DNA from: Candidatus Omnitrophota bacterium
GTDB taxonomy: Bacteria > Ratteibacteria > UBA8468 > MWAK01
Direction: 5' to 3'
Length of the DNA: 61,011 nucleotides
Assembly (NCBI GenBank): GCA_043797665.1
Contig: JAZDPL010000011.1
Coordinates: forward strand, 1-61,011
Part shown: piece after piece, positions 18,148 through 53,308 of the stretch
Layout: each line of letters opens with the position of its first letter
Position numbering within the stretch: position 1 is the stretch's first letter
The notes under the pieces: generated by a model
What the model saw: the letters and a program-made list of their open reading frames with translations, nothing else
What the model was told of the DNA's origin: nothing
Databases searched by the model: none
Program-made: the position numbers and the translations under genes

Positions 18148-18831
18148 TCAATCTAAGAGGTTAATTCTATCCATGATTTCATGGGCAAGGTCCAAAAACT
18201 TACTTTTTAATTCTCCGGCATTTATCTCAGCAACCATATCCACTGGCCATTGAGTAATTTCGTCAGGAAATTTGTCGGCTTCTTTAAGGGCGATAGCAAA
18301 CCAGTAAAGGTCAAAACCCGGGTCCTTCTGTTTTGCTAGCCCGATTAAATTTTCCATGGGTTCGGTTCCCAAAATGAAGAACAAGTCAATGGCATCTCGA
18401 TGTTTCCACCGTCCAAAATAGGTAAGGAGTTTATCCGTTATCAGGTCATTGTAACTGTTTATCTTTACTCCGTATTCCGAAATCTGAGGTTCTTCAAAAT
18501 GAAAAGGTGAATCATAAGCAAGATGGAGTCGCACACTTTCACCCTCTTTTTTAACTTCAAGTTCGGCGAAAGATTCGAATCTACGAGTGACACTAAATGG
18601 GTATCCCTCTTGCAGCAACTTTTCTTCTAAAACCCTGACAAAAGGTACGATTAGACCTGTCTCTCGAGTGAAAAAATCAAGGTCATAAGAATGGCGATGT
18701 CCCAGGTAAAACTCTGCGAGGGCAGTTCCGCCGGTTAGATAGAATAAAGCCGCCTCTTTGACTTTTCCAAACTCGACCAACAGATTCTTCTGAAGTGGCG
18801 TGAGGATACCCTTACCCTTTAGCGTATTCAA
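18148..18831 (-). CDS. AbiEii/AbiGii-like nucleotidyltransferase (type IV TA toxin-like)
   Basis: FYLTGGTALAEFYLGHRHSYDLDFF, DKL, RDAIDL. Confidence 0.85.
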   Translation of the reverse strand: MNTLKGKGILTPLQKNLLVEFGKVKEAALFYLTGGTALAEFYLGHRHSYDLDFFTRETGLIVPFVRVLEEKLLQEGYPFSVTRRFESFAELEVKKEGESVRLHLAYDSPFHFEEPQISEYGVKINSYNDLITDKLLTYFGRWKHRDAIDLFFILGTEPMENLIGLAKQKDPGFDLYWFAIALKEADKFPDEITQWPVDMVAEINAGELKSKFLDLAHEIMDRINLLD

Positions 18832-19033
18832 AATAGTCCTCCCATAGTCTCTGGACTCTTTCTGGCAAGTTAATCTCAGGAAGGAGCTTCCTTATTTCTT
18901 TCCAGTCCAATTCAGCGATGTCCTCTGTCCTGCCGTTAGAGAGAACTTCTTCGATATACCATTTCCTTTGCCGAGGGTCATTAAGGTCAATTTCTTTGTT
19001 GGTTGACCAAATTATGTATCTTTTAGGACGCAT
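18812..19033 (-). CDS. Small partner protein of the nucleotidyltransferase (putative antitoxin)
   Basis: 73 aa, IIWS...YIEEVLSNG pattern, overlaps the toxin start. Confidence 0.7.
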   Translation of the reverse strand: MRPKRYIIWSTNKEIDLNDPRQRKWYIEEVLSNGRTEDIAELDWKEIRKLLPEINLPERVQRLWEDYFEYAKG

Positions 19034-19040
19034 ATCTTTA

Positions 19041-19116
19041 ATTGTAATATATTTCCCCCTGAGTTTGCAATTATTGGGGGGGTTGAATTTGACAAATTGG
19101 TTGGTTATGGTATAAT
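19041..19116. promoter_or_regulatory. Divergent promoters for the TA module (-) and island regulator (+)
   Basis: Plus: TTGACA (19089-94)-N16-TATAAT (19111-16) with TG extension. Minus: TTGCAA (19065-70)-N18-TACAAT (19041-46). Confidence 0.7.
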
Positions 19117-19138: not shown

Positions 19139-20245
19139 ATGTCTCAAGAAAATTTTGTAAGTGCTGCCACTATCTGTTTTGAATCTTCAGAACCTCTTTA
19201 TCTACAAATTGCACGAAGTCTTGAACAAAATATACGAAAAAGGAAGTTTAAACCTTTTGAGAAGCTTCCCCACGAGCGGGCGCTCGCTAATCTCTATAAT
19301 GTCAACCGAGATACGGTAAGAAAAGCAAACAGACATTTAGAAAAAGCCGGGGTTTTGATCCGGGTCCAGGGCAAGGGTACATTCGTAACCGATATCACCA
19401 AGGTAGGGAAAGGGCGCCGCAGGATAGGAATAATAACGGATCGGCCAAATGACAGCACTGATGATTTTATTCCAAACGTGTTTAAAGGCATCTGGTCCGC
19501 CCTCGCCGGTAAGGAAAACAGATATAAAATAGAGTTTTTCACCGCTGAGGATTACGTTGCTCATCAAGATGAATTAGAGGGAAATATTGATGGACTGCTC
19601 TTTTTTGTCCTTGAGGCAAATGAAGAATTTATATTGACACTAAAAAAGAAAAAAATCCCATTAATCATGGTTAATTATTATATTCCCGGCGTTAAACTTA
19701 ATTGTGTATTGTGTAATCACGAGAAAGCAACCCTTGAAGCTACCGAATATCTTCTTAAATTGGGACACAAAAACATTGCCTTCCTCTGCGGTAATTTTAC
19801 CTACCAAAGTGACATCAAACGATTAGAAGGATACAAGATGGCTCTGAAAAAACATGACGTTATTTTCACTCCCAATCTGGTAAAAAGGTGTGGCTACATG
19901 AAGAATGAAACGGAAAGATGTGTGGATGAGTTTTTGAGCCTTCCCGAAAGACCATCCGCCATTATCTGCGCAGATGACAGGGTTGCCTACTGGGTGGCAC
20001 GGATTCTCCGTCAATATCACTTATCCGTTCCGGATGATATATCTCTGATGGGTTTCAATGATATGAAAATAGCTTCCACCATGCATCCTCCGCTCACGAC
20101 TATGAGGATGCCTATGGAAGAGATTGGAAAACTGGCTACGGAGATGTTGTTAGAAATTATTGGGGGTGGAAAATTGCCCAAAAAAGAGAGCGAATTGAAT
20201 TTTACGCTCGTGGAACGAAGGTCGTGCAAGAAAAATGTGGAATAG
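19139..20245 (+). CDS. GntR-wHTH plus LacI-type sensor transcriptional regulator (AraR-like architecture)
   Basis: [46 protein letters not shown]. Confidence 0.92.
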
Positions 20246-20255
20246 GAGGTACAAA

Positions 20256-20975
20256 ATGTTGCGGAAAATGATTTTACAGGGTAAATCCGTCCTTTCGCAA
20301 ATCCGACATGCCTTCACACTCATAGAGCTTTTGGTCGTAATTGCCATCATCGCCATTCTGGCGGCAATGCTTTTGCCGGCGCTCAGCCAGGCAAGGGAAC
20401 AAGCACGAAAATCAAATTGTATGAATAATCTTAAACAATTAGGCTTGGCGATTATGATGTATGCAAACGACCAGGAAGAACGCCTTCCATCCGCGTACCT
20501 TTATCCTTACCCTGCTGAGCCCGCCACCCAATGTGGTTGGGGTTGGCTTCTGGTAAACTCTGGTTATGCACCACCTGTTGCCAGTCTCCGAACTCTAACT
20601 ATATTCAAATGTCCCGGCGAAGGGAATAGGGATTTCAATTATTATGTCTATACTGGCAGTATTTACGGATATAACTATGCAAATTTGGCAGAAGTAAAAA
20701 TGAGCCAAATTAAAAACCCAACGGAAACAATTATGCTTGCAGATAGTTCTTACTATGAAACCGGTAATGGCTTTTTCCTCATAAACGCGACCTGGGCTCA
20801 AAATTGGTATCGTATCTGGGCACGGCACAGTGGTGGTTTAAACATCCTATGGGTAGATGGCCATGTCTCTTACTATCGGCCACCTGATTCCACCAATCCG
20901 TATTCAGGGATGCTGGCTAATGGAACCCCTCCTGGCGCTGACGGGGATCCTAGTAATTACTGGGATACAAAATGA
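20256..20975 (+). CDS. Prepilin-type N-terminal cleavage/methylation protein with H-X9-DG C-terminus (DUF1559-type)
   Basis: [29 protein letters not shown]...[22 protein letters not shown]. Confidence 0.92.
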
Positions 20976-21033
20976 GTTAGGAGTAAACAGGCTGATTATG
21001 AACCAAAAAATATGAACCATGTGGGAGGTTAAG

Positions 21034-24006
21034 ATGTCTACTAAAACATGGATTTTGTTTGTAGTTTTCTCACTATACTTGGGAACGCTGGGACAATTAT
21101 TTGCACAAGATGAATCGGACATTTTAGGCGCATACTCAGATTGGGGCTCAACCATGGTTGACATTAGTACTGACACAGAAACGACTAAAGTAACTAAATT
21201 ATCCTTAAGATGCGAAGTCAAAAACAATGGAAATGGAACAGAAGATTACCCCACTATTGTTAGAAATTTTCCGGAAGGAACTGATTGGGGAAAGTATAAA
21301 AAGATAACAGGCTGGGTTTATGTTACATCTTCTGAGCCTGATATTAAATCTAAAGCTTTCTGCATAGTGATCTTCGATCGCAATTTACCCAAGCAACAAC
21401 AAATCACTGCCTGGGCTGACGTGCCGGCGAATAAATGGACGTGGATTGAAGGAGACATTTCAGAGTTTAAGAGAAATAATGTTGAATTCATAACACCTCA
21501 TTTCTATGAAGGGTCAACTTATTTAAATAAGGAAGAAACATATACTTGGTACATCAATAAACTAAAGTTGGTTGGCGCAGAAGAAAAAAACAACCTTTCG
21601 TTGGAAAAAGATTTTGAAATAAAATATGCATTTGTAGACAAATCACCACTGGATGCGACTTACCCAGTGCCGGGCAACTGGGAAATCAAGAAAATCCAGG
21701 GGAGGACATTTTATCCTGTCGTCTACTATAATTATGATTTTGAGCACCCTTTTTGGAAAGCAGCCACACGCCTTGGAATAACATATGAAGGATTTTCGCT
21801 TGCCTGGGGGGTTTCACCTAAAAAAGAGGTGATTGACCATGTAATCGGGTTAGGGACTCCTTTTATCGGCGGGGGATTGGATATTGGTGAGATGACAAGT
21901 AATAGGACTATGGATGAGAAAATACTAAACCTGAAACAGACCCCCGATAAAGCGGTTGATGGAAGCGTTGATACGACAAGTGCCTGGTGGTCAGGAGCAG
22001 AAGCTCCCGTACCTCAATGGTTGGAAATTGACCTTGAGGAACCGACAGAGATTAATGGTATCCACGTTTTCACCTATTGGGATAATACGAGATATTATGG
22101 CTACCGAATTGAAACAAGTTTGGACCGTGAAACGTGGAAAACGGTAGTCGATTACACGAAAAACAATGTTCCAGCAACAAATCAGGGGATACGTCATACG
22201 TTTGAGAGAGAAAAAACAAAATTTGTACGGGTAGTTGTAACTGCCAATAGTGCCAATACGGCCGCGCATCTTGTCGAAGTGCAAATATATGGCCCCGGTT
22301 CCGACAAAAACCTTGCGGTAGGGAAAAAGGCAAGAGCATCCAGTTTTGCTGGTCAGAGGGAAAACGAATTAAGCCGCGATTTCAAATCTCGGGCATTAAA
22401 ACTGAATGAAGATACTTTTCTTGGCAGTGAATTGGGGGAATGGGGGGATCATTACTTGAAAATAGCCTGGAAAGATTGGAGCGTATATGATCCAGCAAGC
22501 ACATGGTCCGGCAGAAAACCTGCAAACAGGGAAGAAGCATCTCGAGATTTAGAATCATTTTTTAAAGAGTATTTTAATGTGGTAAACGGACGAGTGGTTT
22601 CGTTTCTTGGATACAGGTTATTTCACCACCAGGCGGCTGATTGGGGTGCCAAGGTTCTGGTAATGGAATCCGGAGAAAATATACCTAATACGCAATTACA
22701 GTTAGCCTTTACCCGGGGAGCCGCCCGCCAGTTTCAAGTACCATGGGGAGTAGATTTTTCGGGTTGGTTTTCCGGAAGTATGGTTTATTATCTTGAGGGT
22801 CAGCCCTGGGGTGGAGCAGGAACGTATGGTGGTGGAGTTTCTGGTCCTGATTATGGCCATTCTTTGTCGTTAAGAAAAAGGGTCGCTTATGCTTCATATA
22901 TGGCTGGGACCAACTTTTATATAGATGAAGGCGGTTTTATGATAATGTTTACGAGAGACGAAAAAAACGAATTAGTGCTCTCGCCAATCGGAGAATTTAA
23001 TAAGAAATTTACCGAATTTACGCAGAAACATAAAGAAAGGGGAACATCATACACGCCTATTGCAGCAATGATTGACTACGAGCACGGTTGGTCACCAACA
23101 GGTTGCACCCCTCATTTAATATGGGCGGTATTTGAACCGGATGAGGGAGACATGATGTTGGAAGAATTTTTATACTCTATCTTTCCTGCTCGAGTGAATG
23201 AAGATGAACAGGGCTATTATCTGGCAAACGCACCTTACGGAGATATTTTTGACGTTCTGGTCGCTAATCCGAAAGACCACGAGTTGGACCTTAAATCCCT
23301 CAAGGGATACCGGGTATTGTTTTTGCTGGGGGATATACGTCTCAATAAAAAGCACGTTGTTATTTTAAGCGATTACGTCAAACAAGGGGGCACGCTTGTT
23401 CTGAATTATAGCCAGGCGCAGCTTTTCCCCAACAATTTTATAGGTATTGAACGGATAGGTGATATAACTCGCAGTGGAATTGCCTCCTGTACCGTGGACA
23501 ATTACGAATCCGTATATCAGGAATGCACCTATCCGGAAGTCAAACTCATTGGGAATACGCGGCCTATTGTAGTCGATGATGATAATATGCCGCTGGTTAC
23601 AAAATCGGCATTCGGAAAAGGATATGTAATTACAACCCTCCCTTTATGCTCTTTAGGCGAGAATAGAAAATTATTAAAATTTATTCCGCATCTTGTGCAG
23701 CATATTTCACAAGAAGTACTTCCGGTTCGTGTTAGAGGAGATGTTGAATATATTATAAATACAAGGGGAAAGGGCGCGTGGATTATCACCTTAATAAATA
23801 ATAACGGAGTTACTAAAAAACCGCGTGAAAAAGAAAAAATCGAAAGCGAAGCCGCGTCAACAGTTAGGATATTTTTTGATTCCAAAATTAGCAAAATTTC
23901 AGAATGGCTTGAGGAACAACCTGTTGTCTTAGAAAAAGAAAATGTTGCTATAATAGTAATCCCTCCCGGTGATGTTCGCATTATCGAAGTCGTTCTGGAT
24001 GAATAA
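21034..24006 (+). CDS. Large secreted protein with internal F5/8-type C (discoidin) domain; putative glycoside hydrolase
   Basis: Signal-peptide-like N-terminus; AVDG..SAW..PQWLEIDL..VEVQIYG; C-terminal YVKQGGTLV...FGKGYV segment resembling a GH42 trimerisation-type domain. Confidence 0.65.
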   Translation: MSTKTWILFVVFSLYLGTLGQLFAQDESDILGAYSDWGSTMVDISTDTETTKVTKLSLRCEVKNNGNGTEDYPTIVRNFPEGTDWGKYKKITGWVYVTSSEPDIKSKAFCIVIFDRNLPKQQQITAWADVPANKWTWIEGDISEFKRNNVEFITPHFYEGSTYLNKEETYTWYINKLKLVGAEEKNNLSLEKDFEIKYAFVDKSPLDATYPVPGNWEIKKIQGRTFYPVVYYNYDFEHPFWKAATRLGITYEGFSLAWGVSPKKEVIDHVIGLGTPFIGGGLDIGEMTSNRTMDEKILNLKQTPDKAVDGSVDTTSAWWSGAEAPVPQWLEIDLEEPTEINGIHVFTYWDNTRYYGYRIETSLDRETWKTVVDYTKNNVPATNQGIRHTFEREKTKFVRVVVTANSANTAAHLVEVQIYGPGSDKNLAVGKKARASSFAGQRENELSRDFKSRALKLNEDTFLGSELGEWGDHYLKIAWKDWSVYDPASTWSGRKPANREEASRDLESFFKEYFNVVNGRVVSFLGYRLFHHQAADWGAKVLVMESGENIPNTQLQLAFTRGAARQFQVPWGVDFSGWFSGSMVYYLEGQPWGGAGTYGGGVSGPDYGHSLSLRKRVAYASYMAGTNFYIDEGGFMIMFTRDEKNELVLSPIGEFNKKFTEFTQKHKERGTSYTPIAAMIDYEHGWSPTGCTPHLIWAVFEPDEGDMMLEEFLYSIFPARVNEDEQGYYLANAPYGDIFDVLVANPKDHELDLKSLKGYRVLFLLGDIRLNKKHVVILSDYVKQGGTLVLNYSQAQLFPNNFIGIERIGDITRSGIASCTVDNYESVYQECTYPEVKLIGNTRPIVVDDDNMPLVTKSAFGKGYVITTLPLCSLGENRKLLKFIPHLVQHISQEVLPVRVRGDVEYIINTRGKGAWIITLINNNGVTKKPREKEKIESEAASTVRIFFDSKISKISEWLEEQPVVLEKENVAIIVIPPGDVRIIEVVLDE

Positions 24007-25957
24007 TATAGTAATCCCACCAGAAAAGAGTAGCCAATCTCCATTTACCTCAAGAGCATTTATTGCCGGCTTAGTCCTTTCTGCTGTCATCGGCCTTGGT
24101 GGTCCATACATAAATAATATACTCCAAAGTGGTGATTTGACAGCCACTTTAACCACACCCCTTGCAATCTTTTTATTCTTTGTCCTGGCATTTCTGGTAA
24201 ATCCTGTCGTGGGAAAAATCAGAAGGAATTGTATGTTTTCCGGTTCTGAACTGATATTAATCTATATCATGATGAGCGTAGCCAGCGCTATTCCCACTAT
24301 GGGTTTTATCGGCCAGTTATTACCAATCTTGCTTTCGCCATCTTATTATGCTACACCCGAAAACAGGTGGGCTGAATTAATCCTTCCGCACATACCCGGG
24401 TGGATGACCATCCATGACCAGAATGCAATAAAATACTTTTTTGAAGGAACACCTGAAGGTGTGTCTATTCCCTGGAGCGTATGGATTAAACCCTTATCTT
24501 ACTGGTTAATCTTTATGTTAGCATTCTATTTTGTAACAATCTGCATGATGGTCATCCTCAGGAAGCAATGGGTAGAAAATGAACGGCTAAACTATCCTCT
24601 TGTTCAACTCCCCCAGGAAATGGCTAAATTAGGGGAAAAAGGTTCTGTGCTCGGTCCTTTTTTTAAAAACAATCTGATGTGGCTGGGATTCGCCATTCCA
24701 TTTCTGATCGGTGTTATTAATGGACTGGCCCACTACTTCCCGGCTGTTACAAAAATAGATTTATACGCAATCTTGCCAATATTCAGAAATACCGGCTCGC
24801 TAACATTTTTTATAAGTTTTCCCCTCCTCGGATTTATCTACTTCGTAAACCTGGACATTGCCTTCTCTCTCTGGTTTTTTTATCTCTTAACGCTTATCAT
24901 CACAGGCTATCTGAAAATTACCGGTGCCGGAATGGTCGAAAACTTGGGTAGATACGGAATTGACGAACCGATGTTGGCGCATCAGGTTATGGGTGCGATG
25001 ATTATCTTTGTCCTTCTTGGACTATGGAGGGGACGCCACCATCTCCACACTGTTGTTAGAAGAGCAATCGGACGTGGCAAAAACCTTGATGATTCCCAGG
25101 AAATGCTTTCGTATCCGATAGCTTTTTGGGGAATGATCATAGGTTTGCTGGTGATGACAGCCTGGATTAGAGCGTCAGGATTGACTTTATGGGCCACGGC
25201 GGTCTTTTTATTCGCCGCCTTCATTATTTTTATCGGATTAACCTACATTGTGGCAAAAACAGGGATGCCGTATGTGGTACCACCCATGATAGCCGCCACT
25301 TTTCTTGTTTCGGGGGTTGGTGGCAACGCCATTGGCGTTACCGGCCTTGTAGCGCTTTCTCTAACATATGTTTGGTCTGCAGACTTGTGCGTATTTCTCA
25401 TGCCTTCTGTGGCACATAGCCTAAAACTTACCTCGAAAGAAATAAATAAAAAAAGCCGCCTCTTCTGGGCGATTATGATCGCAATTATCATTGCTGCCAC
25501 TCTTTCAGTCTGGATTACCTTAACGCTTACCTATAAGCATGGAGGCCTAAATTTAAGTCCTCACTTTTACCAAATTTCCCCCCAGTCTCCATTTAGTTAT
25601 ATCAGCAATAAGATAAATACTCCCACTCTACCAAATCTCCTCGGCTGGATACATACCGGTATCGGTGCGCTCATAATGTTCTTTCTTGTCTTTATGAAGC
25701 AAAGGTTTTTGTGGTGGCCACTTGAACCGGTGGGTCTTCTATTAGGCCCAATATGGTTTATGGGCGTGTTATGGTTTAACGTATTTATTATCTGGCTGGT
25801 CAAGTTATTGCTCTTAAAATATGGTGGACCTGAAGTTTATAATCGGGGCAAACCCCTATTCCTGGGGTTTATTCTGGGCCAGTTTACCATCGCAGGTATC
25901 TGGCTTGTTATAGATCTTTTTACAGGAATGACAGGAAACTCGATATTCTGGATATAG
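23999..25957 (+). CDS. Polytopic membrane protein, putative transporter (DUF6785/DUF6784-like)
   Basis: Many TM segments; ILRKQWVENERLNYPL, FLWWPLEPVG, KYGG motifs. Confidence 0.7.
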   Translation: MNNIVIPPEKSSQSPFTSRAFIAGLVLSAVIGLGGPYINNILQSGDLTATLTTPLAIFLFFVLAFLVNPVVGKIRRNCMFSGSELILIYIMMSVASAIPTMGFIGQLLPILLSPSYYATPENRWAELILPHIPGWMTIHDQNAIKYFFEGTPEGVSIPWSVWIKPLSYWLIFMLAFYFVTICMMVILRKQWVENERLNYPLVQLPQEMAKLGEKGSVLGPFFKNNLMWLGFAIPFLIGVINGLAHYFPAVTKIDLYAILPIFRNTGSLTFFISFPLLGFIYFVNLDIAFSLWFFYLLTLIITGYLKITGAGMVENLGRYGIDEPMLAHQVMGAMIIFVLLGLWRGRHHLHTVVRRAIGRGKNLDDSQEMLSYPIAFWGMIIGLLVMTAWIRASGLTLWATAVFLFAAFIIFIGLTYIVAKTGMPYVVPPMIAATFLVSGVGGNAIGVTGLVALSLTYVWSADLCVFLMPSVAHSLKLTSKEINKKSRLFWAIMIAIIIAATLSVWITLTLTYKHGGLNLSPHFYQISPQSPFSYISNKINTPTLPNLLGWIHTGIGALIMFFLVFMKQRFLWWPLEPVGLLLGPIWFMGVLWFNVFIIWLVKLLLLKYGGPEVYNRGKPLFLGFILGQFTIAGIWLVIDLFTGMTGNSIFWI

Positions 25958-25982
25958 ATGTATCTATTTGGAGGAAGAAGAC

Positions 25983-27017
25983 ATGAAATTGAAAGTAGGT
26001 GTGATTGGATGTAGACGTGGAAGGCTGTTTATGACAGCTTTCAACAACCATCCTGATACAACTGTTGAAGCAATCTGCGATTCAGATAAAGAAGAACTTC
26101 AGGCGGTAGCTGAGGAAAAGGGAATAGAAAATATTTTTACAGATTATAGAGTAATGTTAAAAACTAATATTGATATCGTCGTGATAGCAACCCCTCCTTC
26201 TTATCATGCAGAAATATCAGTAAAAGCTTTAAAAGCAAAAAAACATGTTTTATGTGAAGTACCCGCAGCTCTCACCTTAAAAGAATGTGAACTTCTTGTT
26301 GATACAGTCCAAAAGACGGGAATGAAATATATGATGGCTGAAAATTGCAGATTTTATTCAGTAGTAGAGGAAATGAAAAAACTGAAAGAAAAAGGAAAGT
26401 TAGGGGATATCTTTTATGGGGAAGGTGAGTATATGCATGATTGTCGGGCTTTGTTCACAAATCCTGATGGTTATACTACCTGGCGAGCAACTTTTCCTCC
26501 ATCTTCCTATTTAACGCACACCAGTGGTCCGATAATGTATATTCTGGGAGAAAGGTTTGTAGAAGTGATGGCATACGGAAATAGTAAAGTGGAAAACCGC
26601 TGGAACACGAACAACTTAGAGGTAGGATTATTTAGGACTGAAAAAGGTGCTATTGTAAAGATACTCAACTGTTTTGCTTTATCTCGACCGTATTTGATGT
26701 ATTACTCAATTTACGGTTCTAAAGGCTGTGTGGAACGTACCCGTGTCGCCGAAGAACCTGATAGGACATACTTTTCTGGAGAAGAAGAGATGATGAAACC
26801 TTTCATATATCAGGAAGTACGTCCTAGTCCACTTAACCTACCCGGAACTCATGAAGGGAGTGAAAATGTTATGGTACACGAGTTTATTGAATCAATATTA
26901 AAAGATACAACTCCTCCTATAGACATCTATACTGCCATTGATTATACCTTACCGGGAATTTGTGCTTTGGATTCCATCCATAAAAACCAAGCTGTCAAAA
27001 TTCCTCACCTACAGTAA
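25983..27017 (+). CDS. Gfo/Idh/MocA family oxidoreductase
   Basis: VGVIG, KHVLCEVP, YMMAEN, GEYMHD, YLTH. Confidence 0.88.
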   Translation: MKLKVGVIGCRRGRLFMTAFNNHPDTTVEAICDSDKEELQAVAEEKGIENIFTDYRVMLKTNIDIVVIATPPSYHAEISVKALKAKKHVLCEVPAALTLKECELLVDTVQKTGMKYMMAENCRFYSVVEEMKKLKEKGKLGDIFYGEGEYMHDCRALFTNPDGYTTWRATFPPSSYLTHTSGPIMYILGERFVEVMAYGNSKVENRWNTNNLEVGLFRTEKGAIVKILNCFALSRPYLMYYSIYGSKGCVERTRVAEEPDRTYFSGEEEMMKPFIYQEVRPSPLNLPGTHEGSENVMVHEFIESILKDTTPPIDIYTAIDYTLPGICALDSIHKNQAVKIPHLQ

Positions 27018-29718: not shown

Positions 29719-29978
29719 ATTTTACTGTTCGGACGGGTATTGGTTTCAATATCCAGAATCACCAGAATCAACTGGCTGATGGTGTAAAGATAGATAAACC
29801 CGAATACCCCGTAAAGTACGGAAACCAGACAGAGAATTCCACCCGCTTCCGGTTTGCGAAAGACCAATCCGATGCCTACCAGAAGACCCGCACCGCAAAG
29901 TCCGACTATTACCCAGGCAAGAATGCGTATCACCTCAGATATCTTTTGCAGCCCTTGATACTTCCCCTCTCCTTCCAT
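29715..29978 (-). CDS. Small two-TM membrane protein
   Basis: GGAGG SD; two hydrophobic helices; C-terminal LDIETNTR. Confidence 0.75.
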   Translation of the reverse strand: MEGEGKYQGLQKISEVIRILAWVIVGLCGAGLLVGIGLVFRKPEAGGILCLVSVLYGVFGFIYLYTISQLILVILDIETNTRPNSKM

Positions 29979-30037
29979 CTTCCCTCCCTCCCTTTATTAA
30001 TCCACAAATCAAAGTGCAAAAATCAAAATGACCGTTT

Positions 30038-30100
30038 TGTCATCCTGAGCCCCAGCGAAGGATCTCGAGATTCTTCGGGGCTTTGCCCCTCAGAATGACA
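30038..30100. repeat. Family-2 inverted pair
   Basis: TGTCATCCTGAG...CGAAGGATCTCGAGATTCTTCG...CTCAGAATGACA. Confidence 0.85.
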
Positions 30101-30107
30101 GTAACTG

Positions 30108-31148
30108 TCATTCTGGACTGAGACCGGCTTTTAATGCCTGGATGGTCGGGTCAATGCCTCCATCCAGAATCTCTTTCAGGTTATAACTGGTGAAATTAAC
30201 CCGGTGGTCGGTCAAACGGTTCTGGGGAAAATTGTACGTCCGAATCTTTTCGCTTCGGTCCCCGGTCTTTATCTTTGACCGGCGCTCGGCAGAAAGCGCT
30301 TCTTCTTTTTTCTGCCTCTCCTGTTCTGCCAGCCGTGCCGCCAGAACCTTCAGGGCGCGTTCTTTATTCTGAATCTGACTGCGTTCATCCTGACAGGAAA
30401 CTATCAATCCGGTGGGTAAGTGGGTAACCCGGACCGCCGAGTAAGTGGTATTGACTGACTGCCCGCCGTGACCGGAAGAACAGAAGGTGTCAATCCTTAT
30501 ATCCTTCGGGTCGATTTTGACCTCCTGGATGTGAACCTCCGGAAATACCGCTACCGTGGCGGCGGAAGTATGTGTCCGGCCGCTGGATTCGGTCTCCGGA
30601 ACTCGTTGTACCCGGTGCACCCCGCTTTCATACTTCAAAAAACCGTACGCTCCTTTACCTTTAACCAGGAAGATGATGGATTTTACCCCGTTCTTTTCGG
30701 TAAAGTTGCTGTCAAAGACCTCCATCTTAAAACCATGCTTCTCGGCAAACCGGCTGTACATCCGGAAGATATCCCGGGCGAAAAGAGCCGCCTCCTCACC
30801 CCCGGTACCGGCCCGAATCTCAACGATGGCGTTCCGGACATCGTCAGGGTCTTCTCTGATTAAAGAATTTTTCAACTCTTCTTCTAATCTTGCCTCTTCG
30901 GTACGGAGCCTGCCTATCTCCTCCTGCGCTAACAGAACCAACTGGACGTCATCCTCATTCTTAGCCAGTTCCCCTGCTTCCCCTAACTCCTGTTTTACTC
31001 TTGCCAGATGCCGGCTGACCGGAAGAATCTCGCTTATCTTTTTTAATTCCGCCAGGACCTTTTCCCGGTCCGCGTTCGCCAAAGACTCCGGCTGACTCAG
31101 CTGAAGACTCAAAGACTGAAAACGTTCTTCCAGTTCCTCAAGTCGCAC
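30108..31148 (-). CDS. prfA: Peptide chain release factor 1 (GTG start inferred)
   Basis: [21 protein letters not shown] (PxT), [17 protein letters not shown]. Confidence 0.95.
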
Positions 31149-45475: not shown

Positions 45476-45539
45476 TTGTGTATACTAAAATGATAATTTG
45501 ACAAACTATAAAAATTATTATAAGATATTTGTGTATAAT
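45476..45539 (+). promoter_or_regulatory. sigma70-like promoter flanked by TTGTGTATA direct repeats
   Basis: TTGACA (45498-503)-N17-TAAGAT (45521-26); TTGTGTATA at 45476 and 45529. Confidence 0.55.
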
Positions 45540-45554
45540 AAACTCCCCAGGAAA

Positions 45555-46622
45555 ATGACTACATTAATAATGGAAAAAAGCGAGCCGGTCTGGCAGCAAA
45601 TCTATAACGACCTATCTGTTGAGGTCAAAAATTTTGATTTTGGTCAGCGCTTCTATACTCTGGCGGAAATCTGCCGGAAATACGAAGTCAGCGGAATAAC
45701 CGCCCGCCGGGTCCTCTCCGAGATGGAACAGAAAGGCTTAGTTGAAAAGATTCGCAGGAGAGGCACCATCGCAAAAAATTGCAGCGAGAAGTTAAGCATA
45801 AAATTTATATTGCCTGCAGGTATGCCGGCAACAGCATTTTCAACCGAGCCGGTGTTGTTCAGGATTTACAACGGAGTTGCCGCCGAAACAGCCAAAATGA
45901 AAATAAGTCTTGAAACTATCTCGGAAAATTATTTTTCTTCCCTTTCCTTGAATTCCAGACAAAAAATCGGCTTTTTGATTTTTCAACAGACCTGTGATGC
46001 AAACTTCCCGACCTTTCTTAAAGACAACGCCCTTCCTTTTGTCTTTCTCCTTTTACCCGCAAAAGGAGAATTCGCTTCAGTTAGAGTGAATATAAAAAGG
46101 GGTGGTTATCTGGCGGCTAAACACCTTGCTTCCCTGGGGCATCAAAGAATCGGTTTAATAACCGGCCCTATTTCTCTGCCATTCTTTTTACCCAGATTTA
46201 AGGGTTACATTAAGGCACTTAAGGAAGAAAAGATAAAGTTTGACTGGTTACGGGTGAAAGAGACTTCCGGTAAAGACCCCGATGAAGATGAAATTGCACT
46301 TAAGGAACTTCTGGATTTACCTTCCCCGCCCACAGCCATCGTTGCCGGCAACGACTACCGGGCAATGCATATCCTTGACTACTGCCGCAAGAACAATATC
46401 CGCATTCCCGACGACCTGAGTATCATCGGTTTTGACAATATCTCTGAAGCCGCCATAACCCAGCCACCTTTGACCACCGTTGATATTCACCTGAAAAAGG
46501 TTGGCGCGGAGGGATTAAACTTGCTCTTGAGGATGATGACCGAAAAGGGTAAGAAAAATTGGAAGGACATCGTAATCAAGCCGGACCTGGTGGTTCGGGA
46601 AAGTACAAAGGAGGTGATGTGA
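45555..46622 (+). CDS. GntR-wHTH plus LacI-type sensor transcriptional regulator
   Basis: PVWQQIY, VSGITARRVL, RRRGT; LGHQRIG, IPDDLSIIGFDN, PPLTTV. Confidence 0.9.
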   Translation: MTTLIMEKSEPVWQQIYNDLSVEVKNFDFGQRFYTLAEICRKYEVSGITARRVLSEMEQKGLVEKIRRRGTIAKNCSEKLSIKFILPAGMPATAFSTEPVLFRIYNGVAAETAKMKISLETISENYFSSLSLNSRQKIGFLIFQQTCDANFPTFLKDNALPFVFLLLPAKGEFASVRVNIKRGGYLAAKHLASLGHQRIGLITGPISLPFFLPRFKGYIKALKEEKIKFDWLRVKETSGKDPDEDEIALKELLDLPSPPTAIVAGNDYRAMHILDYCRKNNIRIPDDLSIIGFDNISEAAITQPPLTTVDIHLKKVGAEGLNLLLRMMTEKGKKNWKDIVIKPDLVVRESTKEVM

Positions 46623-49600
46623 AAGCTGTGAATAAAATACGTAAATTCGTAGCGCTTTTAGGATTTATTGTAGCCCTGAGGCTTGTCTCGTTGGAAGCAG
46701 CCAATCCGGTCTTTTCAGTAAGTTTTGACGGTAATCTAAAGTCTGCCGGAACAGACTGTACCTGGAAAGGAAAAGAAAAAGCCGTCTTCCAGGAAGGCTA
46801 CGCTGATAAAGCCCTGCTCCTCCGGTCAGATGAATATGAAGTTGAGTACACCGGAGATTTCATAAGTGATGATTTAATGCGCAGTGGTTCTATTGTTTTT
46901 TGGTTTAATCCGACCGATTGGGACCCATTAGCAAAAGAGGATCACTCCATCTATCCTTTCATGCTTTCTGACGGAAAAGGCAATAATGTCTTTATCTATA
47001 TCGCCAGTTTTTCTTCTCCCCAAATAAATAGTCATATCGGTCTCTATGTGGATACTGCGGGACAGAATAGAGCGGCGGGATATCCTGCATTAGAAGAAAA
47101 ACACGGCTGGGGAATGAATAAATGGGTACAAGTAGCCATAACCTGGGACCATTTTATGGGCGAAGCCAAAGTCTATATCAACGATAACCTGCTTACAACC
47201 TTAGCCCTTCCATTGCAATGGAGTAAGTCCGCTGAAATGGGGAAAGAAAATCCTTCTTTGAAAATTGGGGCGATGAATTGCAAACAACCTCTTTGTCACG
47301 CCTTAATCGAGAAATTAACTATATACAAACAGGTTTTATCCCTTAATGATATTTCAGACCTATGGAATTCCCTGGAAAGCCGTGTCGTTCTCGCAAAAAA
47401 GTTCCCCGTACCTACAGTAGTTGTACCCAGGGTAATCACCCCGGTTACACTTGATGGTACTCTGGAAGAGGAACTCTGGAAAAAAGCGAGTGTGGTTCCG
47501 GTAATGGGAAAGAACGAGGGAATTAATCCGGCGACGAGAAGTTCCTGGGCCCTATTGGCTTATGATAACGATAACCTCTACGTCGGTTTTAAATCAGAGA
47601 TAGGACCGGAAGGAGTTAATTGTAAGGCAAAAACAAAAAATGAAGCCCTCTTCTGGAAAGACGACTCCTTCGAAATATTCCTCTGTCCAAGTCAACTGAA
47701 TTGGGATTCCAACGTGAAACAACTGATAGTGAGTTCCGGCAACGTCCATTGGCAGGGTACCGGAATCGGACATCAATTAATTGACGTCCTTCTCTGGCAT
47801 TCAAAGACAAAAATCACCCGGACTCTATTTACCGCTGAGGTGGTGATACCCTTCTCCTCTTTAGGGTGGGGAACACCAAAAGAAAATGAAACCTGGCAGG
47901 CAGAATTATGCCGCAACTGGAATAATTTTGAGATACCGGAGTATGTAAGCTGGGCATCTTCCCCTTCTTCGTATGGTTCTCGGACAGGGACTTTAATCTT
48001 TGGCAGGGAGGAGCAAGCGATAAAGTTTACATTCACCAACACTCTTCAATCAGGCCAGGCTGATCTGGTTTTAAATACCGGTGCAGGATTCCCTGAAAAT
48101 TGCGAACTAACCGCGGAGGTCGAAAAAGATACCGGTATCATCCTTGAGAAGACCTTCCCGGTGGAGGCAAAAAAACCGGTCGATATCCGAATCAAAGAGA
48201 AAATCAAAGATTTAGGTTGGGCTATCTTGAAAGTAGCCCTGAACGAGTGTGGTTCCAAAAAAGAGATTTTCTCTCACGCTACGACTTTTGAAATAGCGCC
48301 TCCTTTGAGTATGCTCCTGTCTCCCGATATTGAAAAAAAAGTCATAAAAATAGCGCTAAAAATTCGGCCTGAGGTTGGAACAAAATGGAAGACAGATATT
48401 GAATCGGGAAATTGTCTTCTGGAGACAGCGATTAAGAAGAGCGTTAAATCTGAAGAGGTATTAAAAACAGAAAGATTCCCTATCCATTCTTTAAATGAAA
48501 CCTTAATCCTGAAATGGGATTGGTGGGAAGAAGGGAATTATGAGATAGCAGTTTCACTTAAAAACAAATCTGTTCCTCCTGGTGCCATAAGCCGTACCTT
48601 CTCTGTTACCATCCCTCCTCTCTCATGGTATGGCAATGACTTGGGTAAGAGTGACGAAGTCCTTAGCCCCTGGTCCCCTTTAGAGTATTCAAAACCCAAA
48701 GCCGTTTCCTGCTGGGGCCGCACCTATACCTTTGCCGGACCTTTTCCCAGCCAGATTACCAACCAGAACAAAGCGCTGTTAGCCGGTCCCATCAGGATGG
48801 TTCTGAAAACAGATAAAGGAGAAGTGGAATTAAAAGAGAAGAATTTTAAGGTATCCGCAGAAAAACCAAACCGATTTGAGTTTGAAGGCAAAGGAGAATT
48901 TGCCGGATTAGGCGGCGAAGTTCTCTTTAACGGTTGGATGGAGTATGATGGTTTAACCGTCTCCAACCTCAAACTTATTCCTCCCAAAGGAGGCTGGCAG
49001 GTTCAATCTTTGTTGATCAAAATACCTTTACGGCCTGACTTAGCCAAATATATTCGTACTCCCAGAAGAATACCGTGGAATGGGGAACGCTGGGAGTCAG
49101 AATTTCTTCCCTATGTCTGGGTAGGAACCGAATACGAGGGGTTCGACTGGTTTATGCCATCAGATGCCAACTGGTTATACAAAAAAGGGGAGAAAACCGT
49201 CATTTTAAACAAAGACCCGGGAAATACCACGGTAACATTGAAGATTATCAGCACTCCGGTTCTGGTAAACATACCGTTAGATTATCAAATTGGTTTTCAA
49301 GCAACACCGGTGAAACCAATTACTGAGGATGTACGGTGCATACGTGCGGGGACTTTCTGGGCCCCCGGATATAAACACAACTATAATGGTGATGGCAAAA
49401 TGAACGCTACCCTGCATACGTACACCGGTATTTACCATGGCATCCATTTTCCTCCTGCCCCCGGTATCAGGGAAGATGTGGGTAATTTTTTTCAGAATAA
49501 GATACGTCTTTTCTACTATATGCACACCTTTACCACCGATGGGAATGACCCGGTCTATAAGTTTTTTGAAAAAGAGTGGCAAAATCCGCGCGCCTGGGGT

Positions 49601-50533
49601 TCCGGCTTCCTAAAACCGGTATGTGCCGGAGCCAAATCATATACCGACTACCTGCGCTGGCAAGCCCATGAAATTCTTTCCAGGCTACCGGAAGCATCCT
49701 ATGGAATATATGTGGATATAGATGGGCTCTATTTCTGCGGGAATCAGAACCATGGTTGTGGCTACACCGATGCTTTTGGACGCAAAGGGCTGACTACCCC
49801 TTTCTTACAAACCAGAGAATACTATAAAAGACTACTTGCCATCTGTCGTCATACCCCCAAACCAAAAGGCTTCTTGTGGCTGCACCAGCACGACTATCTT
49901 GTTTTACCGTACGATTCGTTCGGAGACCTCTGGTTTCCCGGTGAACAGTACAGTCTCGGCGTTTATACGAATCCCTGGTTCTATATGGAGACCTTAGACC
50001 CGGTCGCCTGGCGGGTAGAACTGAGTGGCCGAGCCTCCGGAATCGAACATGTCTTCCTTCCCCAAATAAGGTTGGGACCGGATGTAAATTCGGATTTCAA
50101 TGAATATCGTGAAGATAAAATTTCCATTATGGAAAGTATTATTACCATGTTATTCTTGCATAATATTCCTTTTTCAAACATCTTCAGTCATGTTCCTACC
50201 GGTGCCGCATATTGGGATTTAAGAGACAGACTGGGTTGTGATACTGCAACCTTCCTGGCTTTCTGGGAAGAAGGCTGTCCGGTACAAACAAAACAGGAAA
50301 AAGCCTTAGCCTCTATTTACTACTTCCCGGGAACAAAAGCAATATGTGTCGTCGGTAATCTCTCTTCGGAAGATAAGAACGTCCCGGTAACGATCGACCT
50401 GAACAAACTTGGACTGAACAGACAGAACCTCATCGGTAAAGAAGAACGCACCGGACAACCAGTAGAAATAAAAGAAAATAAATTTACGGTTACGGTAAAA
50501 TCTCATAATTATACAGTTGTATCTATTCAATAA
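46619..50533 (+). CDS. ~1300-aa secreted multidomain protein: LamG-like, CBM9/DOMON-like and putative glycoside hydrolase (DUF6067-like) domains
   Basis: Signal peptide; GSIVFWFNP..WVQVAITWD..VYIN; LDGTLEE.LW..YDNDNLYV..DDSFEIFL; WGRTYTF, MEYDG, QATPVKP, GIYVD. Confidence 0.7.
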   Translation: MKAVNKIRKFVALLGFIVALRLVSLEAANPVFSVSFDGNLKSAGTDCTWKGKEKAVFQEGYADKALLLRSDEYEVEYTGDFISDDLMRSGSIVFWFNPTDWDPLAKEDHSIYPFMLSDGKGNNVFIYIASFSSPQINSHIGLYVDTAGQNRAAGYPALEEKHGWGMNKWVQVAITWDHFMGEAKVYINDNLLTTLALPLQWSKSAEMGKENPSLKIGAMNCKQPLCHALIEKLTIYKQVLSLNDISDLWNSLESRVVLAKKFPVPTVVVPRVITPVTLDGTLEEELWKKASVVPVMGKNEGINPATRSSWALLAYDNDNLYVGFKSEIGPEGVNCKAKTKNEALFWKDDSFEIFLCPSQLNWDSNVKQLIVSSGNVHWQGTGIGHQLIDVLLWHSKTKITRTLFTAEVVIPFSSLGWGTPKENETWQAELCRNWNNFEIPEYVSWASSPSSYGSRTGTLIFGREEQAIKFTFTNTLQSGQADLVLNTGAGFPENCELTAEVEKDTGIILEKTFPVEAKKPVDIRIKEKIKDLGWAILKVALNECGSKKEIFSHATTFEIAPPLSMLLSPDIEKKVIKIALKIRPEVGTKWKTDIESGNCLLETAIKKSVKSEEVLKTERFPIHSLNETLILKWDWWEEGNYEIAVSLKNKSVPPGAISRTFSVTIPPLSWYGNDLGKSDEVLSPWSPLEYSKPKAVSCWGRTYTFAGPFPSQITNQNKALLAGPIRMVLKTDKGEVELKEKNFKVSAEKPNRFEFEGKGEFAGLGGEVLFNGWMEYDGLTVSNLKLIPPKGGWQVQSLLIKIPLRPDLAKYIRTPRRIPWNGERWESEFLPYVWVGTEYEGFDWFMPSDANWLYKKGEKTVILNKDPGNTTVTLKIISTPVLVNIPLDYQIGFQATPVKPITEDVRCIRAGTFWAPGYKHNYNGDGKMNATLHTYTGIYHGIHFPPAPGIREDVGNFFQNKIRLFYYMHTFTTDGNDPVYKFFEKEWQNPRAWGSGFLKPVCAGAKSYTDYLRWQAHEILSRLPEASYGIYVDIDGLYFCGNQNHGCGYTDAFGRKGLTTPFLQTREYYKRLLAICRHTPKPKGFLWLHQHDYLVLPYDSFGDLWFPGEQYSLGVYTNPWFYMETLDPVAWRVELSGRASGIEHVFLPQIRLGPDVNSDFNEYREDKISIMESIITMLFLHNIPFSNIFSHVPTGAAYWDLRDRLGCDTATFLAFWEEGCPVQTKQEKALASIYYFPGTKAICVVGNLSSEDKNVPVTIDLNKLGLNRQNLIGKEERTGQPVEIKENKFTVTVKSHNYTVVSIQ

Positions 50534-50552
50534 AAGAAGTTGAGGAGACACA

Positions 50553-51281
50553 ATGGCGCAGAAACTAATGATAGTGCGGAAAAGAGCAAGTCTCGCCTTC
50601 ACCCTCATAGAACTTTTAGTCGTTATTGCTATTATTGCTCTTCTGGCGGCGATGCTCCTGCCGGCATTGAGCCAGGCCAGGAACAAGGCGCGGGCAGCAA
50701 ACTGTATAAGCAACCTGAAACAACTGGGACTTGCGTTTGTGTTGTACCAGGGGGACAACGACGATTATTTCCCTCCTTTTAACTATGTGGCGTGGGGTAT
50801 AGACGAAAACACGTATAACTGGGCGTGGTATTTTCACCAAGCCGGATATGTAGGAAACAACAACTTGTTCCTGTGCCCACAAGGGAAAGGATATCTAAAC
50901 ATGGCTTACAATCCCGTCCTATCCCCTGACGCGGTTTATACCTACATGTACATTCATTACGGTTATAATTACGCGTACCTGGGGTGTGACTATTACGGCG
51001 CCGGCGGCAGTACGTCATACGCGAATCCTCCGGCCAAGTTCTCACAAATAAAAAACCCCTCGGAGACTATTTTGCTCGCTGACACCTCCTCCCCCGCCGA
51101 CGCGCCTACGAAAGGATTTTACTTGCTAAAATCTGGGGCGGCGGGGAATGGTTATCAAGAAATGCGCGATGATCACGGGGGCGGCTCAAATATTCTTTGG
51201 ATTGACAGCCACGTTTCCTGGTTGGGTAACGCCCGCGCCACCCTGCAGGACGGAAATAAAATTTTCTTTGACCGTAACTGA
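50553..51281 (+). CDS. Prepilin-type N-terminal protein, DUF1559-type with H-X9-DS variant
   Basis: [29 protein letters not shown]...[22 protein letters not shown]. Confidence 0.92.
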
Positions 51282-51306
51282 ACCCAACAAAAAGGAGGGT
51301 AGGAAA

Positions 51307-52101
51307 ATGACACGGTATACAATGCTTATCGTATTCGCAGCAATGCTGTCGTGTCCGGTTCTTTTCGCCGGGACGCCGGAAGGACTTACTTTTTATGCCT
51401 CGTTCAACCAGACGGTAGACGCAGATTTTTCGGTCGCGAAGACAACCTGCAACAGCCCGGCACAGCTCACGGATGAAAACAAGGGAATATCGGGAAAAGG
51501 TGCGCTTGTATGCTGGGACAACCTTGAGGATTTTGCGGATGTAAAGGCGCGTGATTCGCAGCCGCGCCAGGTAAGGGAGCTGGAATTCGCAAACGCGGGC
51601 GTGTTCAATCCGGAAGCGGGAACCGTGGAAATGTGGATAAAACCTTATTTCAACGGTATTTTGCCGACACAGGAAGGGTCATATGAAATATATTATCTGC
51701 TCAACGTCAGGAATTCCAAAATTTCCGGCAAGGGGGGGCTGGCTTTCGCGATATACCGGGCTGTCTCCGGAACCCAACGGTATATCACCGTTAATTTTAA
51801 CGTGGATGGAAATGATGAACAGCCTCCTTCCTCGTGCTGCTTTGAGGTGTCAAACTGGAAGGCAAAGGAATGGCATCATATCGCCTTTACGTGGGATGCC
51901 GCCCAAAAGGTGTTGTACCTTGATGGTGGGAAAAAAGCCGAGTTAAAAATACCGGGTAAGATTCTCGCGCAGCAACCAGAGTTTCAACTTGGCTGCTCGT
52001 GGTCCTCTACCAGCATCTTCCAGGGTGTAATCGACGAGGTGAAAATTTACGACCGGGTCATGTACCACGACACATTTTCCCCGAAACAGGAGAAACAATG
52101 A
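51307..52101 (+). CDS. Secreted LamG/concanavalin-like domain protein
   Basis: Signal peptide; GTVEMWIKP, WHHIAFTWD, LYLDG, FQGVIDEVKIYD. Confidence 0.85.
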   Translation: MTRYTMLIVFAAMLSCPVLFAGTPEGLTFYASFNQTVDADFSVAKTTCNSPAQLTDENKGISGKGALVCWDNLEDFADVKARDSQPRQVRELEFANAGVFNPEAGTVEMWIKPYFNGILPTQEGSYEIYYLLNVRNSKISGKGGLAFAIYRAVSGTQRYITVNFNVDGNDEQPPSSCCFEVSNWKAKEWHHIAFTWDAAQKVLYLDGGKKAELKIPGKILAQQPEFQLGCSWSSTSIFQGVIDEVKIYDRVMYHDTFSPKQEKQ

Positions 52102-52131
52102 AACCGCTCCGGCTGTCGTGGAAGGGGGGGG

Positions 52132-53217: not shown

Positions 53218-53308
53218 CGATTTATGGCGCCCGATTTTTTAAGGAGGAGGATTTCCGGCGGGATAATCAAAGAAATTCGGGACGTAAATAACAGTCAAAA
53301 AGTTTGAT

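Follow-up and report, generated by a model that had tools for sequence, protein, structure and literature searches.

We analyzed contig C72 of a Candidatus Omnitrophota (Ratteibacteria) genome, a window of 61,011 nt; the genome assembly (G000) is 2.69 Mb long and 86% complete. The window carries a run of five plus-strand genes that encode, in this order, a GntR-LacI regulator, a DUF1559/H-X9-DG prepilin, a 990-amino acid (aa) secreted protein, a DUF6785/DUF6784 membrane protein and a Gfo/Idh/MocA oxidoreductase (Table 1). The run is very probably a glycan-catabolic operon. We class the locus as similar to a polysaccharide utilization locus (PUL) in which a pilin takes over the specificity slot and the carrier is of predicted OPT fold. 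The placement of such a pilin directly behind a sugar-type regulator and ahead of glycan-active genes recurs throughout the genome.

Judged by its sequence, the product of the second gene is a member of the DUF1559/H-X9-DG prepilin family, scoring above the cut-off of all three curated models (N_methyl, 31.4 vs. 21.2 bits; PF07596, 54.2 vs. 23.3 bits; TIGR04294, 25.7 vs. 19 bits). Type IV pilins and pseudopilins share a basic leader, a small residue at position −1, Phe at +1, Glu at +5 and a hydrophobic helix. The features of a class III signal are present here, with a predicted cut between A19 and F20 and the Glu +5 at E24, and the −1 residue is G, A or S in 57 of 58 paralogues. The protein also has a cysteine pair (C55/C119) and the motif H191-X9-D201-G-H203. 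In a 47-sequence alignment, variation between copies falls in the head, with no change in the stalk, the cysteine pair or the H-X9-DGH motif. It does not qualify as the major pseudopilin GspG (TIGR01710, 36.5 bits vs. a cut-off of 88.85). The DUF1559 family was found in all 31 genomes of the class that were searched, with 3 to at least 57 scored matches each, and at E 1e-10 this pilin matches 121,533 clusters (50% identity), those matched through the common N-terminal helix included. Separately, a database protein (P0154) appears to join a pilin-type N-terminus to ∼700 aa that end in a LamG domain.

Neighborhoods of the pilin genes

Our own gene calls (2330 in G000) contained 59 DUF1559-type pilins, when those within clusters encoding a type II secretion system (T2SS) or type IV pilus (T4P) were excluded. 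Seventeen of the 59 lie directly behind a LacI-type regulator (15 adjacent and 2 fused), compared with a random mean of 0.85 and a maximum of 4 in 500 permutations, and 17 of the 33 LacI-type regulators of the genome are directly followed by a pilin. When gene order was shuffled within the 26 co-oriented runs that hold both, 15 such pairs were observed vs. 3.0 expected (maximum 10 in 5000 shuffles). A preference for the first slot was absent for GH123N, LamG, URO-D and Gfo genes (2, 2, 0 and 1 observed vs. 1.7, 1.2, 1.3 and 0.6 expected). The LACI profile also labels ∼250-aa DeoR/GntR-type regulators (e.g., L128/L254), which we term only "regulator".

Of 54 genes scanned directly behind a pilin, 35 encode a glycoside hydrolase (GH), carbohydrate-binding module (CBM), lectin or GH-like DUF domain. 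The scanned set consists of the 59 pilins minus the two of the window and minus three without a co-oriented non-pilin next gene; 32 of the 54 next genes have a named GH, CBM or lectin domain, 3 only DUF6259 or DUF4838, 3 URO-D, 1 PfkB, 12 no match and 3 an unrelated domain. The two window pilins are followed by the CBM32 hydrolase and by a LamG protein. Among 82 control genes (≥400 aa, more than 5 genes away from any pilin, in 20 random regions), 5 were glycan-active (4 named and 1 DUF2961; Fisher p 1e-13), a p value that overstates the difference because the control genes are shorter (median 498 vs. 681 aa) and genes are not independent. The second gene after the pilin was glycan-active in 28 of 48 cases. 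A sequence-only reading of the window had suggested a test for co-localization of DUF1559 genes with carbohydrate genes and LacI-type regulators, and the genome-wide enrichment of both is strong.

The order recurs in a genome from another family of the class (G015). There, a DeoR-type regulator is followed by a pilin, a LamG+CBM32+hydrolase homologue of the 990-aa protein, a CBM32 protein, a CBM9-like protein, an OPT carrier, a PHP gene and a URO-D gene, with identities to the present operon of 31.6% for the hydrolase and 46% for the OPT carrier. A pilin, a weak match to the hydrolase family and the carrier also share one run in G017:C18 (L220). Within G000, all three operons with this hydrolase family begin with a regulator and a pilin, and the operon of the window pilin's closest paralogue likewise encodes a member of the family.

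Regulator and pilin are joined in one polypeptide in 19 of the best 120 longer homologues, two of them from G000. The in-frame fusions of G000 lie at C8:31840-33723 and C65:29409-31355 (L059, L038), and fusions of this kind recur in other phyla. Fused and split forms share the same 90% clusters, and the fusion linkers retain the pilin's own start. A designed signaling device was rejected as the default explanation on these two grounds. We read the fusions as read-through that appears to be tolerated, which agrees with tight co-expression and an expendable leader.

Two further features of the pilin neighborhoods were recorded. About 66 URO-D/MtaA-like genes (methylcobamide methyltransferase fold) were found in G000, and they lie within 5 genes of 20 of the 59 pilins vs. 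9 expected; they possibly act in demethylation of O-methylated sugars. Short palindromic repeats are abundant genome-wide and at 29978-30108 of the window (more than 100 copies of one motif and 72 per strand of another). They lie within 150 nt of pilin cleavage sites in 7/59 and 2/59 cases and also occur in frame inside other genes.

Enzyme, carrier and layout of the run

The large secreted protein has an N-terminal hydrophobic signal, and its CBM32 spans residues 308-420 in the 995-aa reading of the open reading frame (ORF). Its 16 database homologues (23-39% identity) are all unnamed, and the N-terminal domain has no homologue among the fetched sequences. The structural model is confident from residue 492; residues 17-491 are unreliable (predicted local distance difference test, pLDDT, <50), and the N-terminal half of the barrel is poorly modeled. 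The model matched GH42, GH164, GH35 and GH151 structures (VIA Z scores of 16.9, 15.9, 14.7 and 13.7; Foldseek E about 1e-17), and its Atlas neighbors are unnamed clusters, some of them Glyco_hydro_42M. The barrel, the GATase-like domain and the beta-sandwich are alike in these structures (PDB 3tts, 5xb7, 6t5o, 7vkw and 6tvk; 438-470 residues aligned), but identity is just 10-14%. The glycosidase-like fold anticipated by the sequence-only reading is therefore seen in the model.

Assignment to GH42 itself was rejected: the fold agrees, but Pfam Glyco_hydro_42 (PF02449) has no match in the protein at E 0.01, and the GH42 Glu nucleophile is absent from the family, the corresponding column (D574) holding Tyr 20, Asp 5, Gly 4 and Glu 1 times in 36 sequences. 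We take the nucleophile to be located on strand 7, and mapped it onto D574 through a GH42-like paralogue of G000 that aligns with the hydrolase family at an HHalign probability of 98.4%; this paralogue was used as reference, a search of 5 outside genomes at E 1e-30 having given no canonical GH42. Glu545 and Glu632 are each kept in 34 of 36 family sequences, and Glu469 in about 35 of 36 (by eye). Since the fold and a conserved Glu set are present and the nucleophile is lost, we treat the protein as glycoside hydrolase-like rather than as GH42. By its modeled structure, it is a candidate glycoside hydrolase that resembles GH42 in fold, differs from it in the catalytic set and would represent an unclassified family.

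The model of the membrane protein matched barley YS1 (7wsr/7wst) over the whole chain (Foldseek E 2e-8, TM 0.65-0.71). The VIA match to YS1 reached Z 24.1, with 556 of 652 residues aligned at a root-mean-square deviation (rmsd) of 4.0, and the next best match Z 6.1. Barley YS1, of the OPT/YSL type, is described in PMC9691689 as a proton-coupled elevator carrier of metal-phytosiderophore; the protein of the window shares its fold at 11-14% identity, without a match to PF03169 (OPT) or a PDB sequence match with a 92-sequence profile, and lies among glycan genes. With a membrane protein of OPT/YSL fold, the operon has its own predicted importer. The "multi-TM protein" of the sequence-only reading is polytopic and, by its predicted fold, a secondary transporter, which that reading had overlooked.

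The DUF6785 carrier family is present in 29 of the 31 class genomes, and each of the 3 DUF6785 genes of G000 has a pilin no more than 5 genes away (p about 0.03). In the 79 loci of a broad scan, in other phyla, the usual neighbors of DUF6785 are sulfatase, oxidoreductase, FlgD-domain or M28-FtsX genes, and this prevalence of other contexts suggests a general importer family that was recruited into some pilin operons. An obligate pair of pilin and OPT carrier was considered and rejected on the counts of pilin-bearing DUF6785 loci that are given in the next section. A metagenome scan with the carrier yielded 3 distant loci, with no pilin in the two examined (L227, L228). In another cassette (L027:5770-14108 in G000 C63, L098, L099 and L112) the DUF6785 carrier precedes an M28 peptidase-FtsX fusion of 1450-1670 aa and a further, unassigned membrane protein, and this cassette is kept in 9-10 of the 79 outside loci. 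No publication on DUF6785 or DUF6784 was found in a literature search that had most subscription papers outside its reach.

The regulator joins a GntR winged helix-turn-helix to a LacI/GalR sugar domain, a chimeric architecture that we take to be of the AraR type. The oxidoreductase scored below every NCBIfam equivalog cut-off, including those of the glycoside 3-dehydrogenase models of BT_2158/BT_2159 type (45.8 of 750 and 35.6 of 650 bits).

All five ORFs of the run are present in the order given by the sequence-only reading, and their domains were matched by Pfam and NCBIfam. Its description of an AT-richer and tightly packed run was likewise accurate: the GC content is 0.415, compared with 0.502 and 0.509 in the flanks and 0.481 in the whole genome, and the intergenic gaps are 10, 58, −8 and 10-25 nt. 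As it also stated, SusC/D, ATP-binding cassette (ABC), phosphotransferase system (PTS) and pilus-assembly genes are absent from the five ORFs. The promoter ahead of the regulator is the sole 12/12 site among 25 consensus matches; the total of 25 is not above that of shuffled sequence (21.2 ± 3.7), and for terminator-like matches the count of 12 does not clearly exceed that of shuffles (8.3 ± 3.2). The perfect promoter and the short gaps would be compatible with a single transcript for all five genes, in agreement with the co-transcription that had been supposed.

Table 1. Features of the five-gene run and its surroundings (positions in the window; RBS, ribosome-binding site)
Feature	Position	Strand	RBS-preceded start	Support or remarks
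AbiEii nucleotidyltransferase (PF08843) and small upstream ORF, divergent pair	18148..19033	-		GC 0.419
Sigma-70-type promoter	19089..19116	+		12/12 consensus and extended -10 TG; 22 nt 5' of regulator start
GntR winged-helix and LacI-type sugar-domain regulator, 368 aa	19139..20245	+	19139	PF00392 E 2e-18; PF13377 E 1e-35; RBS and ATG
DUF1559/H-X9-DG prepilin, 239 aa	20256..20975	+	20256	PF07963, PF07596, TIGR02532 and TIGR04294 above cut-off
Secreted putative glycoside hydrolase, 990 aa	21034..24006	+	21034	Sec-type signal, N-terminal domain, CBM32, TIM barrel, GATase-like trimerisation domain, beta-sandwich
CBM32 / F5-8 type C module in the hydrolase	21940..22278	+		PF00754 E 9e-17; PDB sequence matches to CBM32 modules
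DUF6785 and DUF6784 polytopic membrane protein, predicted OPT/YSL-fold secondary carrier, 652 aa	23999..25957	+	23999	Model pLDDT 89.8
Gfo/Idh/MocA NAD(P)-dependent oxidoreductase, 344-349 aa	25968..27017	+	25968/25983	PF01408 E 5e-26

The AT-rich stretch extends into the AbiEii-type pair, which probably entered together with the island. The run and the pair sit between minus-strand trmD and a gene that we take, from its motif, to be rpsP-like. We infer that the five-gene cassette was laterally acquired; no insertion-site repeats bounding the island were found, and no integrase was seen in the ORF list of the window. AT-richness as a general trait of pilin loci was rejected (GC at third codon positions of 0.528 near pilins vs. 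0.522 elsewhere in the genome). A second locus of like design lies at 45498-54406 of the window. It comprises a GntR-LacI regulator, a 1304-aa LamG/CBM9/GH123_N protein, a DUF1559 pilin and a LamG protein, and it also holds two URO-D/MtaA-like genes.

Possible roles of the pilin

The peptidase, assembly ATPase and secretin of a type IV pilin system are all encoded in G000, outside the run, where the sequence-only reading had expected them: 1 PilD, 4 secretins, 12 assembly/retraction ATPases that scored over cut-off, and several T2SS/T4P clusters were found. One type IV filament cluster (C21:14974-26570) has two tandem secretins, PilM/N, an ATPase and a platform gene, with no pilin in its listed ORFs, and is a candidate machine for the dispersed pilins. 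As to classical uptake, 1 SBP_bac_1, 6 ABC permeases, 3 MFS and 1 SSF were detected, and TonB-dependent barrels, DctM and PTS EIIC gave 0 matches each in this incomplete genome. TonB receptors over cut-off occur in 8 of the 31 class genomes, with 1-3 copies.

The closest parallel in the literature is the pilin that Verruconatronum alginivorum induces on alginate, as documented in PMC13274419. According to its Table S3, this 251-aa pilin accounts for 0.513% of the proteome with alginate as substrate and for 0 with mannose or with sucrose (one replicate); it is the most abundant protein of its cluster, at ∼8 times the level of GspG (0.064%). In that cluster (pgaptmp_000046-60) a pilin of a 67-copy family heads secreted glycan enzymes, with secondary carrier and LacI genes nearby, and is induced by the substrate. 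The cluster differs from ours in its phylum, in its lyases and SSF carrier, and in the presence of TonB systems (PMC13274419).

The scarcity of classical binding proteins in G000, together with the substrate-specific high expression of a same-sized pilin (PMC13274419), lends indirect support to the SusD-like capture role that the sequence-only reading had proposed and that we consider plausible. A glycan-derived sugar would relieve GntR-LacI repression. The pilin would then be produced abundantly, processed by the sole PilD and incorporated into a common type IV filament machine whose genes lie elsewhere, and its variable head on a conserved stalk would bind or retain the target glycan at the envelope, standing in for the SusD or ABC binding protein that the genome nearly lacks. 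The Sec-exported hydrolase would then cut the glycan, with its CBM32, in the periplasm or at the surface, the OPT-fold carrier would take in the cleavage products, and the Gfo/Idh/MocA enzyme would oxidize the sugar or glycoside in the cytoplasm. Read from gene content, this mechanism as a whole, with the pilin as a substrate-specific capture subunit of the shared filament machine, stands evenly between right and wrong in our estimate. We rank capture as the best single mechanism, ahead of an enzyme adaptor, a membrane-anchored binding protein and an adhesin or passenger.

The genes after the pilins are large (median 681 vs. 300 aa), and an N-terminal hydrophobic stretch as the only one was found by a crude heuristic in 27 of 56 of them, compared with 371 of 1823 genes in the genome. 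These figures, and the several T2SS-like clusters of G000, would also suit a pilin that acts as a cargo-specific adaptor, loading the secreted enzymes of its own operon onto a shared T2SS for export or display, with no glycan binding. The authors of PMC13274419 likewise couple their pilin with T2SS export of alginases; in the same data, however, the alginate pilin outnumbers both the cluster enzymes and GspG. The same hydrolase family is found without an adjacent pilin in 15 of 18 non-self loci, which also counts against an adaptor. Canonical T2SS substrates, moreover, share one pseudopilin set. We consider the adaptor rather unlikely.

A processed pilin that forms no filament, remains a membrane-anchored periplasmic binding protein and delivers oligosaccharides to carriers of the inner membrane, the OPT-fold protein among them, would agree with the names in use, namely SBP_bac_10 in Pfam, "solute-binding" in PMC2754498 and "DUF1559 family PulG-like putative transporter" in one NCBI label. 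It would agree also with the fractionation of the Tuwongella DUF1559 pilins, which PMC8567305 describes as different from that of plain pilins, and with the position of all three DUF6785 genes near pilins. We hold this alternative to be improbable. The 59 pilins stand against 3 DUF6785 carriers, one of which is in the separate M28-FtsX cassette, and two requirements of filament assembly, Glu +5 and the hydrophobic helix, are invariant.

At least as improbable is a pilin without any role in uptake, which only adheres to a glycan-bearing particle or host or is a tolerated passenger of cassette duplication: type IV pili mediate polysaccharide adhesion in Fimbriiglobus (cited in PMC11131199), pilus adhesion is reported for Akkermansiaceae MUL2 (PMC13174399) and the leaders tolerate read-through fusions, but adhesion alone leaves the scarcity of receptors and binding proteins unexplained, and the fixed first slot behind the regulator, the intact frames and the invariant core residues in dozens of divergent copies argue against a passenger.

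Several observations weigh against the capture mechanism or the generality of the gene order. Pilin similarity tracks the neighbor family weakly (5 of 44 best-hit pairs vs. a 4.5% baseline, p 0.046), and cassette duplication accounts for this co-variation equally well. Some pilins lie in housekeeping contexts (after polA, before nadB). A co-oriented upstream pilin was seen in 3 of the 18 non-self loci of the hydrolase family, many of them on short contigs, and in one genus a Gfo-domain gene, rather than a pilin, precedes the hydrolase. Among the relatives, a LacI-type gene lies ≤1.5 kb upstream in 5 of 29 top-scoring pilin loci. DUF6785 loci had a pilin nearby in 5 of 20 cases within the class (chosen for long contigs) and in 2 of 79 from the broad scan. 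The genome is 86% complete, so that missing transporters are no proof of absence. The Tuwongella DUF1559 genes are evenly spread and flanked by signal-peptide genes, and glycan loci go unmentioned in the consulted part of PMC8567305. Finally, the likeness of the V. alginivorum pilin to ours is one of size and gene setting.

The housekeeping-position pilins (G000 C1, C63; L194, L195, L196, L201) are themselves conserved, and are possibly ancestral or shared copies.

Relation to known systems

Ratteibacteria have been placed with the PVC (Planctomycetes-Verrucomicrobia-Chlamydiae) group (10.1101/2023.11.21.568195), and Planctomycetales carry at least 41 DUF1559-type copies per genome (PMC8567305). 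The window pilin passes all models of the PVC family (DUF1559/SBP_bac_10, N_methyl and H-X9-DG) and belongs to the same genome-scale expansion. In the literature consulted, the function of that family is unassigned or generically solute-binding, whereas here the pilin is the first gene, behind the regulator, of a predicted sugar-regulated glycan operon. In Akkermansiaceae, MUL2 ties a type IV-like pilus to glycan capture within the PVC group; it is described as one conserved four-gene locus with PilM and MUL2A (PMC13174399), whereas the ∼59 variable pilins of G000 belong to separate catabolic operons that carry no assembly genes. The five-gene run contains no PilM-like gene and thus falls outside the definition of MUL2. 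The literature search found neither a regulator-DUF1559-glycanase rule nor these loci in Ratteibacteria, within the same limits of access as above, and a term search of the main text of bioRxiv 10.64898/2026.10.06.756941 (supplements aside) returned no mention of pilins.

The run has the regulator, glycan-active enzyme and transporter of a carbohydrate-active enzyme (CAZyme) gene cluster in the broad sense, enzyme and carrier being assigned by predicted fold. The PULs of Bacteroidota are substrate-specific loci based on SusC and SusD. Both systems place a regulator, a glycan-active enzyme and a carrier in each substrate-specific unit and hold dozens of units, but our locus has no susC-susD pair, no TonB barrel was found in the 86%-complete genome, and a pilin with a class III signal fills the specificity slot.

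How TonB-poor PVC-side bacteria take up polysaccharides is the question that these pilin operons address. From the fixed regulator-pilin-enzyme order, each pilin head is predicted to recognize either the glycan or the enzyme of the operon to which it belongs. The locus also yields two candidates for new activities, a hydrolase of an unclassified family that combines a GH42-like fold with a different catalytic set and, in a sugar context, a carrier with the OPT/YSL fold. Tentatively, and with the balance tilted somewhat against it, bacteria of the Ratteibacteria class, and probably other PVC-side lineages, may import complex glycans independently of TonB through one shared type IV filament machine with dozens of interchangeable, sugar-inducible pilin heads (one glycan each), together with hydrolases outside the classified families and OPT/YSL-fold carriers that have been turned into importers of oligosaccharides. 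If true, a third paradigm would stand next to the SusCD and the ABC-based loci, and a very large protein family that is so far unexplained would gain a function.

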